From the sequence record PP328843.1: a stretch of DNA of 64,000 nt, one strand, 5' to 3'. Below are positions 1 to 9,937 of the stretch, piece after piece. Every line of letters begins with the position of its first letter. Position 1 is the stretch's first letter. Source of the stretch: Escherichia phage 215Ecol030PP. Made by a program: the position numbers and the translations under genes. The notes below the pieces were generated by a model. That model saw only the letters and a program-made list of their open reading frames with translations, did no database searches and was not told the origin of the DNA.

Positions 1-55
1 CTTTACCGATTTTCTCTTCAGTATGTGGTTTATAACCCTTAATATCTTCAATCAT
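1..55 (-). CDS. hypothetical protein, 3'-truncated by window edge (ATG at 55-53, N-terminus MIEDIKGYKPHTEEKIGK)
   Basis: ATG overlapping stop of upstream ORF (ATGATTGA); open frame runs off window start. Confidence 0.3.
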   Translation of the reverse strand, partial: MIEDIKGYKPHTEEKIGK

Positions 56-269
56 ATTTGACTTCCTCACCAGTGCATAAATCGTATTCAACTAAACGAA
101 TAGGTTCATGAATGCCATATCCCTGAACAGAAATTTCTGTCGTAGGATAAATTCCATCAATATCACCCATATTCCAGGCTTCATTAAATTGCTGTTCGCC
201 TGAATTACTAAACCACTCGGCGAAAGCATTTAGCACATCTTCAGAACCTTCAATAATTATCTTTGCCAT
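48..269 (-). CDS. hypothetical protein (73 aa)
   Basis: ORF track; ATG at 269 overlaps stop of upstream gene (ATGA-type coupling). Confidence 0.5.
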   Translation of the reverse strand: MAKIIIEGSEDVLNAFAEWFSNSGEQQFNEAWNMGDIDGIYPTTEISVQGYGIHEPIRLVEYDLCTGEEVKYD

Positions 270-631
270 TACAAACTCTCGGTAAAGGTACGAGCGATAA
301 CATCGCGCTGCTGTTCCGGAGTCAGAGAGTTAAAGCGAACTGCATAACCGGATACACGGATGGTCAGCTGCGGATATTTTTCCGGATGCTTAACTGCATC
401 TTCCAGAGTTTCACGACGCAGAACGTTAACGTTCAGGTGTTGACCACCTTCAATTTTAACTGTAGGTTGTGTTTCAATTTCAATTTCACGGGCATGCAAA
501 CCATAGAAAATTTCTGGGTCTACAAAAGAGTCCTCTTTAAAGGTTTTAGAAACGATAATTCGTGCTTGAATACCATCTTCAAAATAAATAGTACCTTTAT
601 GTGTGCCTTCAAGAATTTGATATGCTTTCAT
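269..631 (-). CDS. autonomous glycyl radical cofactor, YfiD/GrcA-like (120 aa)
   Basis: C-terminal ~55 aa carry glycyl-radical signature [29 protein letters not shown]; SD GAGG upstream of ATG at 631. Confidence 0.8.
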
Positions 632-638
632 ATAAACC

Positions 639-968
639 TCAATTAGAAAATAAATTTATCCAAGATTGTTCTTTAATTAAAAATGGCTCAGAATCATATG
701 CCATTAAACTCTGTGTGATTAGTCCTTTAAAAGGCCCATCAATAAATTCCATGGTAAAATATGGAATTTTATTCATTAGCCGTGCATTAGGAGCAGTACA
801 TAAAACTCTGCATCCTTTGAATACACCTTTTTGTAATTTGTATTGCTTGGGATAAAATTCGCTCAAAATGTTATTATTTGCTAAAATTTCAAAATGATTC
901 ACCAATTTATTTTTAATAGTTTTTGGCGAAAAATAAAGATATTCGAAAAGCTGAGTGTCTGTCATCAT
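639..968 (-). CDS. hypothetical protein (~109 aa from MMTDTQ start)
   Basis: ORF track 639..1019; internal Met gives ATGA overlap with upstream gene stop. Confidence 0.45.
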
Positions 969-1552
969 TGCATTCCGATTACGAAAAACTGTGGACGAGT
1001 AATACCACCAATACAACATTTAATATTACAGCAGCAGTGTACAGTGTCAATATGGACACTATAAATCTTATCCATATCAGGAGATTTGACAGGCTCATCA
1101 ATTATATACAAAATTCGCGAAAGCGATAAACCTCTGAACTTGCTTCCTTTATTACCAATAAAACTGCGTACAGAATCAGTAAATAAACGAAAACGTATAT
1201 CATCATTAGAATAACGTGAAAATTCCTTTTTAATGTTATTTGCAGAAATTTTAGCGTAAGCTGAAGTATTAGAAAGAACAATAACTGTTCCGCCATCATA
1301 CAACCAATTAGCAGCAAAGTTAGTCACAGCAATTGATTTACCAGATTGACGTCCACCGTCTAGTCGAAGTGTGCAATACTGTTTAAGTAAGTCTTCAAAT
1401 GGCGGGATATATTCGTTTTTACAAATTTCTTCTACTCTAGCATCAGAATGGTGTGTAAAAGCATTCATCAGGGATAGATAAGGACCAGTTAAAAATGTTC
1501 TCATTTTGTTCTCTCTAGGTTTGGGCCATTCCATGGCGCATGAATTGTCCAT
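965..1552 (-). CDS. P-loop NTPase-like protein (Walker A GGRQSGKS, Walker B-like YIIDEP); start ambiguous (1552/1534/1504)
   Basis: ORF track; Walker motifs read from translation. Confidence 0.55.
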   Translation of the reverse strand: MDNSCAMEWPKPRENKMRTFLTGPYLSLMNAFTHHSDARVEEICKNEYIPPFEDLLKQYCTLRLDGGRQSGKSIAVTNFAANWLYDGGTVIVLSNTSAYAKISANNIKKEFSRYSNDDIRFRLFTDSVRSFIGNKGSKFRGLSLSRILYIIDEPVKSPDMDKIYSVHIDTVHCCCNIKCCIGGITRPQFFVIGMQ

Positions 1553-1649
1553 TTCTGTATTTACCCATTACCGCACTTGGGCTCGACCTTATTACAGGTT
1601 GGCGGGAATCCCTCACAGAATCATGAGGTCCAGGTTATTCCCATGTTAT

Positions 1650-2066
1650 TTAAATGTAAATATTTTTGCCGTAATACTTATACCAGTGTGGCTTCATTAA
1701 AATTTTTTCATCGAGTCGTTGTTGACTCAACTTAATAGCTGATTTACATGGATTATAATCATTTTTCCATTCTACTGGAATATCGCTGATGTCAGGAACT
1801 TCAGTATCTTTTATACTGAACCCGCGTTTTAAGCATTCCGTTATAATGTCCGATTGACGCTTTCGCAAAAATTCTAACTTATCGTAAAAGAAAGTAACAT
1901 GACCAGAACCTAAAATAAATTTAGAAGATATTTTAAAATCTTTAACGCGCTTACCGTTTGCCACATGCTTACGAACTATACCAAAAACACGCGGCAATTC
2001 ACGGTATTCTGCGATTAAATGTTGATCAGCAAGTTCAGATACTAAAGTCAAATTAATACGAGTCAT
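1650..2066 (-). CDS. denV: endonuclease V (pyrimidine-dimer DNA glycosylase), 138 aa
   Basis: N-terminus [17 protein letters not shown]...[10 protein letters not shown] matches T4 endonuclease V; same length. Confidence 0.9.
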
Positions 2067-2125
2067 TTTATCCCTCCAAGTAACTGTGAATATACTATCA
2101 CAGTTTTAGGAGAAAGTAAACAACT

Positions 2126-2656
<531 letters not shown>

Positions 2657-7196: not shown

Positions 7197-7272
7197 TGGT
7201 CGAGGCAGTAGGGATCGAACCTACGACCCAGGACTTAGAAGGTCCTTGCTCTTCCTTCTGAGCTATGCCCCG
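7197..7272 (-). tRNA. tRNA-Arg (anticodon TCT), CCA encoded
   Basis: hand-folded cloverleaf: 7-bp acceptor, D stem GCTC/GAGC, anticodon loop CTTCTAA, T-loop TTCGATC. Confidence 0.8.
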
Positions 7273-7276
7273 TAAT

Positions 7277-7352
7277 TGGGGTGACCGATGGGAGTCGAAC
7301 CCATGACTACGAGAATCACAATCTCGAGTTCTACCAACTGAACTACGGCCAC
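7277..7352 (-). tRNA. tRNA-His (anticodon GTG), CCA encoded
   Basis: hand-folded cloverleaf; anticodon loop TTGTGAT; T-arm ATGGG/CCCAT. Confidence 0.75.
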
Positions 7353-7443
7353 ATTAATACCTACTCCAACAATCAAGATGTCTTCACACGAAATTAAGAG
7401 AAGAGTGATCAGTTCAACCCCTATAATCGCGTCAAGTAGATAT

Positions 7444-7465
7444 TAATGTGACAGTTGTCACAAAT
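7444..7465. promoter_or_regulatory. perfect CRP-consensus-like palindrome TGTGA-N6-TCACA (TAATGTGACAGTTGTCACAAAT)
   Basis: both CRP half-sites and 6-bp spacing exact, A/T flanks; lies 3' of tRNA-Asn. Confidence 0.4.
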
Positions 7466-7466
7466 T

Positions 7467-7541
7467 TGGCGGACGTGATAGGATTCGAACCTATAACCAA
7501 TCGCTTAACAGGCGATCGCTCTGCCATTGAGCTACACATCC
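7467..7541 (-). tRNA. tRNA-Asn (anticodon GTT), CCA encoded
   Basis: hand-folded cloverleaf; anticodon stem ATCGC/GCGAT, loop CTGTTAA. Confidence 0.75.
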
Positions 7542-7545
7542 AAAT

Positions 7546-7632
7546 TGGTGGGGAGTGATGGAGTCGAACCACCCGAGTCGCAATGACAATGGATTTACAG
7601 TCCACACCGCTACCTCTACGGGATAACTCCCC
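7546..7632 (-). tRNA. tRNA-Tyr (anticodon GTA), type II with long variable arm, CCA encoded
   Basis: perfect 7-bp acceptor GGGGAGT/ACTCCCC; anticodon loop CTGTAAA. Confidence 0.75.
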
Positions 7633-7645
7633 TTAATTCTTAATT

Positions 7646-7720
7646 TGGTGGCCCTGGGTGGAATTGAACCACCATCTGGCGATTATGAGTCGCTTGCTTG
7701 AACCTTCCAGCTACAGGGCC
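7646..7720 (-). tRNA. tRNA with anticodon CAT (Met or lysidine-modified Ile, as T4 tRNA-Ile)
   Basis: perfect acceptor GGCCCTG/CAGGGCC, T-arm GGTGG/CCACC, anticodon loop CTCATAA. Confidence 0.75.
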
Positions 7721-7728
7721 AAATTTTC

Positions 7729-8214
7729 TTATTTTATGTAATATTTATTTAAAAACTTTCTAGCTTGAGTATGGCTAACATTTATAGCGTTTGCATAATT
7801 TTTAATAAAACCTCGTTCATCCATATTAAAATTTTCTAATATTTTTAATCGTCTAGTTATCTCATCTTGACTTAAGGTACTTGCATTATTTTTAGAAATT
7901 TTTTCTAAGGACTGTGCCGAGTGTTTTCGACCATTAAAATTAAAATTTTTAGATTTTGGAGGAAATCTAGCATTTAATCTCGCATCTTTTGTATTTTGAT
8001 TATTAGTTGCGCAATATATGTTATTTAATGAATATGGTCCTTTATCGCCGAAACGGCACATGCAGTATTCATGACCCTTTCTTCCACGCTTATCATAATT
8101 TCCCGTTGATTTCCACCAATGCAGCCATTCATCAAAAGTTAAATTCCATTCAATGTTTCTACGTATAGCAGAATTCCGCTGAGAAATATATTTTGCATAA
8201 TCTTCTTTCATCAC
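7729..8214 (-). CDS. putative HNH-family homing endonuclease embedded in the tRNA cluster (161 aa, GTG start)
   Basis: motif GHEYCMCRFGDKGPYSLNNIYCATNNQN resembles HNH core; basic C-terminal DNA-binding-like tail. Confidence 0.5.
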   Translation of the reverse strand: MMKEDYAKYISQRNSAIRRNIEWNLTFDEWLHWWKSTGNYDKRGRKGHEYCMCRFGDKGPYSLNNIYCATNNQNTKDARLNARFPPKSKNFNFNGRKHSAQSLEKISKNNASTLSQDEITRRLKILENFNMDERGFIKNYANAINVSHTQARKFLNKYYIK

Positions 8215-8258
8215 AAATTTCTCTACTTATTCAATACACTGAGCTAAATCAGCAAAAC

Positions 8259-8348
8259 TGGCGGAGGCGATAGGATTTGAACCTATGAGTCGCCGGAGCG
8301 ACTGCCGGTTTTCAAGACCGGTGCATTAAACCACTCTGCCACGCCTCC
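8259..8348 (-). tRNA. tRNA-Ser (anticodon TGA), type II, CCA encoded
   Basis: acceptor GGAGGCG/CGCCTCC; anticodon stem CCGGT/ACCGG, loop CTTGAAA; long variable arm. Confidence 0.8.
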
Positions 8349-8350
8349 AG

Positions 8351-8424
8351 TCTCCGCGGCAGGATTTGAACCTACGACATTCTGCTCCCAAAGCAGACGC
8401 TCTACCAAACTGAGCTACACGGAG
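8351..8424 (-). tRNA. tRNA-Pro (anticodon TGG), CCA not encoded; 2 nt from tRNA-Ser (dimeric precursor geometry)
   Basis: D stem GCTC/GAGC; anticodon stem TCTGC/GCAGA, loop TTTGGGA. Confidence 0.8.
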
Positions 8425-8434
8425 TAAATTAAAT

Positions 8435-8508
<74 letters not shown>

Positions 8509-8513
8509 AAATT

Positions 8514-8600
8514 TGGTGCGAGAAGTGGGACTCGAACCCACAAGGAAATCATTCCGCAGCATTTTAAGTGCTGTGCCTTTACCAATTTGGCCATTCTCGC
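8514..8600 (-). tRNA. tRNA-Leu (anticodon TAA), type II, CCA encoded
   Basis: acceptor GCGAGAA/TTCTCGC; anticodon stem CAGCA/TGCTG, loop CTTAAAA. Confidence 0.8.
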
Positions 8601-8601
8601 G

Positions 8602-8674
8602 CTGGGAATAAAGGACTCGAACCTTTGCATCCTGGAATCAAAATCCAGTGCCTTACCAACTTGGCTAATTCCCA
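8602..8674 (-). tRNA. tRNA-Gln (anticodon TTG), CCA not encoded; 1 nt from tRNA-Leu (dimeric precursor geometry)
   Basis: acceptor TGGGAAT/ATTCCCA; anticodon stem CTGGA/TCCAG, loop TTTTGAT. Confidence 0.8.
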
Positions 8675-9703: not shown

Positions 9704-9937
9704 TTATTTTTTACGAAAAATTGATTTATTTTCTGCTGCCCATTTTTCAATAACTGCAGCAGGACCAGTAACAACAATTTTATCACCGTAATCTTCTGCG
9801 GCGAGTTGACCGAAATTATCTAATGCATCACGAAGAACTCCATGAGGCATTTCACCCATTTTATCTTTCTTGCCAGTGTAAATAAACTCAACTTTTACAT
9901 CAGCAGTTTCAGCAATAAATTCTTGGTAAGTTTTCAT
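9704..9937 (-). CDS. internal protein with canonical capsid targeting sequence MKTYQEFIAE (77 aa)
   Basis: N-terminus identical to T4 IP-type CTS; own promoter element upstream. Confidence 0.7.
   Translation of the reverse strand: MKTYQEFIAETADVKVEFIYTGKKDKMGEMPHGVLRDALDNFGQLAAEDYGDKIVVTGPAAVIEKWAAENKSIFRKK

Follow-up and report, generated by a model that had tools for sequence, protein, structure and literature searches.

The vs.6 gene of Escherichia phage 215Ecol030PP lies near one end of the 64,000-nt stretch of its genome that we analyzed (PP328843.1; the whole of this stretch is hereafter called the window) and encodes a homologue of the E. coli glycyl radical cofactor GrcA (YfiD). Our comparisons make it very probable that vs.6 is a T4-type GrcA spare part in which the N-terminal half is of vertical phage descent and the radical domain has recently been overwritten by E. 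coli grcA. The gene and its parts are the following.

269-631, minus strand: vs.6 coding sequence (CDS; GrcA/YfiD/Y06I homologue), an ATG-started open reading frame (ORF) of 120 codons with its stop at 269-271
452-631, minus strand: phage-lineage N-terminal module, codons 1-60, which diverges with phage taxonomy
303-453, minus strand: host-derived tract, radical domain, defined by the exact run shared with E. coli grcA
272-302, minus strand: phage-type 3' tail, from the third base of codon 110 to codon 120, encoding the same residues as GrcA

vs.6 is a mosaic of phage and host sequence

Codon-by-codon comparison of vs.6 with E. coli grcA showed that every base of codons 61-109 is the same in the two genes, and the longest exact run, of 151 nt, extends from the last two bases of codon 60 to the second base of codon 110. 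Upstream of this run, only 70 of the 180 bases of codons 1-60 are identical when the sequences are compared ungapped and anchored at the 3' end. Divergence along the gene is therefore not uniform but changes at a sharp edge at codon 60/61, as the mosaic proposed in the initial annotation had anticipated. At the protein level the last 60 residues (EGGQHL...TFTESL) are 100% identical to GrcA residues 68-127; the host-identical C-terminus noted in that annotation is real and slightly longer than the approximately 55 residues it gave. Its description of the N-terminal half as divergent was also correct, protein identity being about 27% there. The N-terminal halves alone are still homologous, as judged by a profile-profile alignment (hhalign) of those of 11 phage and 12 bacterial proteins (probability 95.8%, E = 7.8e-9, 62 columns, 27% identity), from which the register of this region was taken.

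On the 3' side, the tract gives way to a phage-type tail. Synonymous differences from E. coli number 0 at 37 sites in the tract and 5 at 8 sites in the last 11 codons (Fisher p = 4.6e-5), which corresponds to a proportion of synonymous differences (pS) of 0 in the tract and 0.63 in the adjoining tail. The tail ends with the phage-type codons ACC GAG AGT, common to the window phage and Mosigvirus, and 3' of the stop codon there is no DNA similarity to the region downstream of E. coli grcA. In T4 the E. coli-identical run is 178 nt long and reaches codon 118, but in the window phage it ends at codon 109/110 because this phage keeps the phage-type ACC GAG codons near the 3' end. The 3' junction thus differs between close relatives.

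The GC content at third codon positions (GC3) of the tract is 43%, equal to that of E. coli grcA (43%), as against 17% in the N-terminal part of the window gene. This N-terminal part diverges in step with phage taxonomy, with 88.9% identity to Mosigvirus, 75% to Jiaodavirus and 61% to RB43. Within positions 1-25000 of the window nothing but the vs.6 tract matches the E. coli chromosome, and this tract is matched in 5,426/5,426 complete genomes; it also matches an E. coli paralogue more weakly, giving a median of 2 places per genome. The only other host-like DNA in these 25,000 positions consists of weak tRNA similarities to plasmid-borne tRNAs. In all, vs.6 combines a host-identity tract of host composition with phage-type flanks, and the phylogenies of its segments are incongruent.

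Synonymous sites point to exchange rather than constraint alone

The initial annotation had left open whether strong constraint or recent exchange accounts for the host-like C-terminus. The comparisons indicate that the host-identical DNA of the tract is due to exchange, alongside a real constraint on the protein. Conservation of the 60-residue domain is high across all the phage and bacterial homologues, codon usage in grcA is biased, and the tract varies by just 8-13% between host genera, all of which could suggest extreme purifying selection on an anciently acquired gene in which no recent exchange took place. Citrobacter phage Margaery provides a control for this explanation because it encodes the same 60 residues as the window phage and yet its 147-nt segment shows 22 synonymous differences from that of E. 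coli. Constraint alone therefore gives only about 85% DNA identity. The window tract instead shows no synonymous difference from E. coli, although pS in the same segment is 0.32 between E. coli and Citrobacter amalonaticus and 0.63 between E. coli and Salmonella. Furthermore, the five synonymous differences of the tail lie within the same conserved domain, and Klebsiella phages match K. pneumoniae instead of E. coli. Constraint as the sole cause has next to no probability, and the synonymous-site pattern already refutes it.

The identity of the tract is specific to the genus of the host. The window tract is identical to E. coli at 147/147 positions and to any other genus at no more than 135/147 (80 species). 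Taken together, the window phage, T4 and Mosigvirus score 143-147/147 against E. coli and at most 135/147 against any other genus. Other phage lineages, namely RB43, CC31, phiEap-3, Krischvirus, MP1, T5-like and Aeromonas phages and about 70 IMG/VR contigs, reach 104-127/147 against the best of 82 host species. When the tract was analysed by neighbour-joining, the sequences of Tequatrovirus and Mosigvirus joined those of the two Escherichia hosts in 287/300 bootstraps.

Host DNA occurs in phage lysates, so that a host-like tract might in principle come from a chimeric assembly or from contaminating host reads. This is virtually impossible here: over 700 phage genomes that were sequenced independently, those of T4, T2 and the RB phages among them, have the same in-frame junction, the tract lies inside an intact ORF and is flanked on either side by phage sequence, and Klebsiella phages have the Klebsiella version.

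The host gene is the donor

Identity by itself gives no direction, and E. coli and K. pneumoniae might have taken the 3' halves of their grcA genes from phages. The composition of the tract argues against this. Its GC3 is 43% in the E. coli-type phages and 65% in Jiaodavirus, where K. pneumoniae has 67%; in both cases it is the same as in the remainder of the host gene and much higher than in the phage N-terminal parts (17-23%). Synonymous divergence between the two hosts is uniform along grcA, with pS between E. coli and K. pneumoniae of 0.51 in the N-terminal half and 0.43 in the tract. Moreover, each of the 5,426 E. coli genomes has the tract, at a conserved locus (ung-grcA-eamB), and host tracts broadly group related enterobacterial genera. 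Transfer from phage to host is extremely unlikely. Because the tract matches the host in GC3, host divergence is uniform along grcA and the host gene sits at a conserved locus, these sequence comparisons identify E. coli grcA as the donor. The donor is grcA and not pflB, since DNA identity of the tract is 100% to the former and about 83% to the latter.

Klebsiella phages carry the tract of their own host

In Jiaodavirus, a genus of Klebsiella phages, the vs.6 segment is identical to K. pneumoniae grcA at 144/147 positions (98%) and to E. coli at only 126-129/147. Exact runs of 101-107 nt are shared with K. pneumoniae grcA and start from the same codon-61 edge, and the protein has the Klebsiella-type residues LLDAVEH in place of the E. 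coli-type LEDAVKH. The tract clade formed by Jiaodavirus and K. pneumoniae is recovered in 295/300 bootstraps (neighbour-joining), and K. pneumoniae grcA has matches of 95-99% in 106 phage records. The genus was represented by KP17 and Nispero; KPV15 was left out as its vs.6 is frameshifted. The K. pneumoniae grcA came from a chromosome labelled as a plasmid in PLSDB, a database that holds whole chromosomes under this label, for example CP125156.1 (5.37 Mb) and NZ_OL790696.1 (4.80 Mb). The frameshift splits vs.6 of Klebsiella phage KPV15 into two annotated CDS, and grcA of K. aerogenes NCTC10006 is frameshifted too, by an extra A in the run GAAAAAATA; both are probably sequencing errors.

The N-terminal parts of Tequatrovirus and Jiaodavirus vs.6 are ordinary orthologues with 75% identity, and both genera have therefore inherited vs.6, which was separately overwritten in each. 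The sequences thus indicate that the host gene was copied into the phage gene at least two independent times. Comparison of the window with Mosigvirus LNA2 gave a pS of 0.03 for the tract, as against 0.33 for the N-terminal part and 0.38 for the tail (p = 6e-4). Since pS of the tract is low compared to its flanks, the tract either postdates the Tequatrovirus/Mosigvirus split or moved between the two genera. Copying from E. coli would have occurred at least once and probably separately in Tequatrovirus and Mosigvirus, and copying from K. pneumoniae once, in Jiaodavirus. It is likely that the radical domain is kept in step with each host's grcA by repeated recombination between the host chromosome and virulent T-even-type phages.

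Tequatroviruses whose recorded isolation host is Salmonella, Yersinia, Serratia, Citrobacter, Hafnia or even Pseudomonas all have the E. coli-type tract, and 'Salmonella phage PSE-D1' has the K. pneumoniae-type tract. The tract may tell more about the natural host than the isolation host does.

Two IMG/VR contigs were observed beside these genera. IMGVR_UViG_3300008607_000007 shares a 56-nt exact run with grcA of a Haemophilus metagenome-assembled genome, and IMGVR_UViG_2706794630_000006 is identical to Yersinia artesiana grcA at 133/147 positions, its best match within the host panel and above the 104-127 background. Judged from these matches, both are possible further cases of host tracking, their true hosts lying outside the panel.

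vs.6 belongs to the GrcA family of spare-part proteins

The assignment of vs.6 as a GrcA/YfiD-like glycyl radical protein, already made in the initial annotation, was borne out by the searches. Pfam Gly_radical (PF01228) matched residues 60-101 with E = 2.2e-18 (67.2 bits for a cutoff of 22.2), and the top NCBIfam match was the GrcA equivalog TIGR04365 with E = 1.4e-45 (154.6 bits). When vs.6 was compared with PDB sequences by phmmer, the YfiD structure 6OWR, solved by nuclear magnetic resonance (NMR), came first (E = 4.6e-42, vs.6 residues 22-120), followed by the C-terminus of pyruvate formate-lyase (PFL; residues 697-759; E = 4.8e-26, vs.6 residues 58-120). The radical motif is where it had been placed.

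344-358, minus strand: RVSGY glycyl radical motif, codons 92-96, from the translation and alignments to 6OWR and PFL 1CM5/1H16

Within it, Gly95 (347-349) aligns with Gly102 of GrcA and Gly734 of PflB. The following features of the GrcA class are present in vs.6: a stand-alone small protein (about 120-130 aa in the class), a terminal glycyl radical domain, the RVSG[YF] loop and N-terminal homology. In PHROGs the family is phrog_1209, of unknown function.

The spare-part protein of T4 is Y06I, taken to be the product of vs.6 in line with RefSeq naming. The window protein is its orthologue, with 119/120 residues identical, and the proposed homology to a T4 spare part was correct. As reported from Wagner et al. 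2001 in PMC8683613, PFL activase activates E. coli YfiD as well as T4 Y06I, and the two proteins restore the activity of oxygen-cleaved PFL; according to the same paper they are still the only two validated spare-part proteins. The first 60 residues of YfiD have no ordered structure and favour both binding to cleaved PFL and installation of the radical, and residues 61-127 form a structured domain that mimics PFL (PMC8683613). The converted tract starts seven residues into this structured domain (GrcA residue 68), and the junction fits the architecture of the protein.

A model for the function and conversion of vs.6

In the model that we propose, oxygen would cleave host PflB at its radical glycine, and a GrcA-type protein would dock its C-terminal domain into the damaged enzyme. 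Once docked it would receive a glycyl radical from host PflA, so that PflB activity is brought back, and a spare part supplied by the phage would presumably keep fermentative energy metabolism going after host expression is shut off. Codons 1-60 would have descended vertically in phages, as a far-diverged homologue of the disordered, PFL-recognising half of GrcA. Codons 61-109 would have been acquired recently by homologous recombination (gene conversion) with the chromosomal grcA of E. coli.

The 5' junction lies exactly where similarity between phage and host begins, as expected if crossovers need homology. Phage lineages that are not converted share only 12-20-nt exact runs with hosts, and given such short runs a first conversion would be a rare event of homeologous recombination, which would leave a perfect tract of 150-180 bp and so make later conversion easy. 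The 3' junction falls short of the last codons, which overlap the translation-initiation region of the downstream gene vs.5, and this may select for the phage-type ending. Identity with the host could have been selected because it fits the protein to PflB and PflA of the host, or it could be the neutral outcome of homogenisation after a perfect homology tract had arisen.

Several points weigh against this account. Recombination is inferred from the sequences and was not observed. A host-derived tract was found in just three genera. When phage genomes were searched with grcA of Salmonella enterica and Enterobacter sichuanensis, no tract of either type was found, none of the matches reaching 95%; host tracking is therefore not universal. 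In Mosigvirus APCEc01, four changes in the tract match no allele (at ≥99%) among the 5,426 E. coli genomes, so that this copy has no sign of recent re-conversion; the changes could be phage-lineage changes or come from an unsampled host. The TIGR04365 score of vs.6 (154.6 bits) is below the curated equivalog cutoff of 170, with E. coli GrcA at 233.9, because the divergent N-terminal 20 residues do not align. Finally, the functional data belong to the T4 protein, from which the window allele, as translated, differs at one residue (T54 vs P54).

The N-terminus resembles a capsid-targeting sequence

The initial annotation had also pointed out that the first residues of vs.6, MKAYQILEG, resemble the capsid-targeting sequence (CTS) of T4 internal proteins and had raised the possibility of packaging. 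In that case the protein would enter proheads, be cut by gp21 after Glu8 and be injected with the DNA. The likeness is real if short. The pattern M[KN]x[YF]Q is rare, with 2 occurrences in the six frames of the window, one in vs.6 and the other in the only true CTS gene found there.

9704-9937, minus strand: internal virion protein gene, 77 aa, starting with the canonical CTS MKTYQEFIAE (phrog_8111, E = 1.2e-52)

In register with this CTS, M1, K2, Y4 and Q5 of vs.6 are identical (4/10) and Leu replaces Phe at position 7. From mutagenesis, targeting has been reported to depend mainly on positions 4 and 7, and processing by gp21 on positions 8 and 10, which are I and E (PMC9026906). The Y4 and hydrophobic residue 7 of vs.6 agree with the former, and I6-L7-E8 fits the I/L-x-E cleavage pattern, though out of register. 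At positions 8 and 10, however, vs.6 has E and T, so that the in-register processing site is absent.

Other observations speak against capsid targeting. MKAYQILEG aligns opposite ITGIQITKA of GrcA (hhalign), with Gln5 invariant in the phage and bacterial families, so that this N-terminus has a counterpart in GrcA's own. Glu8 is not conserved, being replaced by N in CC31, S in MP1 and K in both Krischvirus and T5. T5-like siphoviruses share the start (MKAYQNLKSG), and such phages would not be expected to use a T4-type CTS/gp21 system. Apart from shared codons, vs.6 and the gene at 9704-9937 have no DNA similarity in their 5' ends or in the DNA preceding them, and their synonymous choices are unrelated. 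The two also belong to different families, phrog_1209 and phrog_8111 (internal virion protein). The interval from gene e to vs.6 (632-2620, minus strand) has no copy of TATAAATA, the core of the T4 late promoter; it does contain a sigma-70-like promoter, at 1050-1022. Lastly, the vs.6 protein is not named in the T4 head-content literature that we searched, which yielded nothing relevant on vs.6 in virions. Packaging of the vs.6 protein is very unlikely, and the resemblance is better read as GrcA homology, which removes a tempting but unsupported idea.

In the whole window TATAAATA occurs 24 times, compared to 10 expected from shuffles. Most copies closely precede long structural genes of the plus strand, and two stand before gene e, at 2634-2654.

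Relation to known systems

The gene and its biochemical role are already known, annotated and characterised, and the window adds no new function. The exact 120-aa protein is in public databases (RefSeq/UniRef) as "autonomous glycyl radical cofactor GrcA", and by megablast vs.6 matches 729 phage records at high identity, labelled vs.6 or with this same name. The closest are Salmonella phage F13076 (99.2%), T2/RB51/RB68 (98.6%) and T4 (98.1%). In contrast, we found no description of the DNA-level identity with grcA or of host-specific tracts in the literature searched, the older subscription literature on T4 being outside reach.

The nearest system is T4 Y06I, which shares with the window gene the denV-regB position, 98.1% of the DNA, all residues but one and the codon at which the tract starts, and differs in having P54 where the window has T54 and an E. 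coli-identical run of 178 nt instead of 151. E. coli GrcA (YfiD, 6OWR, TIGR04365) has the same last 60 residues, RVSGY loop and two-part architecture of recognition half and PFL-mimicking domain; vs.6 is 7 residues shorter, is about 27% identical in the N-terminal half and lies in an operon of small genes of a virulent phage rather than at the ung-grcA locus. The C-terminal domain of PflB (1H16/2PFL, residues 697-759) has the same fold element and motif, but vs.6 is a stand-alone protein of 13-14 kDa. The T4 internal proteins IPI, IPII and IPIII share M1, K2, Y4 and Q5 with vs.6, which differs from them in having no in-register I-x-E, in not being basic or IP-like and in its PHROG and locus.

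The closest analogy that we know of is psbA of marine cyanophages, an auxiliary metabolic gene that is a mosaic of host and phage sequence and in which host-type patches reveal recombination. vs.6 differs in residing in a virulent T-even phage and in having a single domain-sized patch whose 5' edge is fixed and which is specific to the host species in two genera of hosts. The DNA of T-even phages contains hydroxymethylcytosine, and these phages break down the DNA of their host. vs.6 would be a clean natural case of homologous recombination between the host chromosome and a strictly lytic phage of this type, domain-precise and specific to the host species. It bears on how auxiliary metabolic genes stay compatible with their host partners, here PflB and PflA, and on which half of GrcA must match the host and which may diverge, in keeping with the structured and disordered division seen by NMR. 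It also bears on the use of tracts as markers of recent phage host range. If our account is correct, a lytic phage gene evolves in concert with its host homologue and the tract is a built-in record of the recent host.

Genomic setting of vs.6

vs.6 lies in the denV-regB block of T-even phages, where the genes of its strand are, in order, lysozyme e (2126-2620), denV (1650-2066), a small phrog_1488 ORF, a small phrog_2049 ORF, vs.6 and the phrog_1986 gene. The elements that border vs.6 are as follows.

637-640, minus strand: GAGG ribosome-binding site (Shine-Dalgarno) of vs.6, 5 nt before the ATG, read from the sequence
48-269, minus strand: vs.5, the downstream gene, 73 aa (phrog_1986, E = 9.6e-44)

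The stop codon of vs.6 and the ATG of vs.5 overlap (TAATG), which suggests that the two genes are probably translationally coupled, and this coupling may constrain the 3' end of vs.6. A TTG-started ORF of 127 aa lies antisense to vs.6 at 263-646 (plus strand) and is most likely an open frame only and no gene.

In the window e and denV directly adjoin (1650-2620, minus strand), but in T4 ipIII and ipII lie between them, so that this IP locus of T4 is missing in the window phage. Two genes before vs.6, the phrog_1488 ORF (965-1552, minus strand; a family of unknown function) has a Walker-A-like motif, GGRQSGKS, and weakly matches the terminase large subunit in its ATPase region (phrog_2, E = 1.5e-5); it may encode a small P-loop NTPase. 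Ten tRNA genes (Arg, His, Asn, Tyr, Met-CAT, Ser, Pro, Gly, Leu and Gln) are clustered at 7197-8674 on the minus strand, a repertoire that differs from the eight of T4. The region of the Tyr and Asn tRNAs is 83-90% similar to tRNA genes on E. coli plasmid records of about 100 kb.

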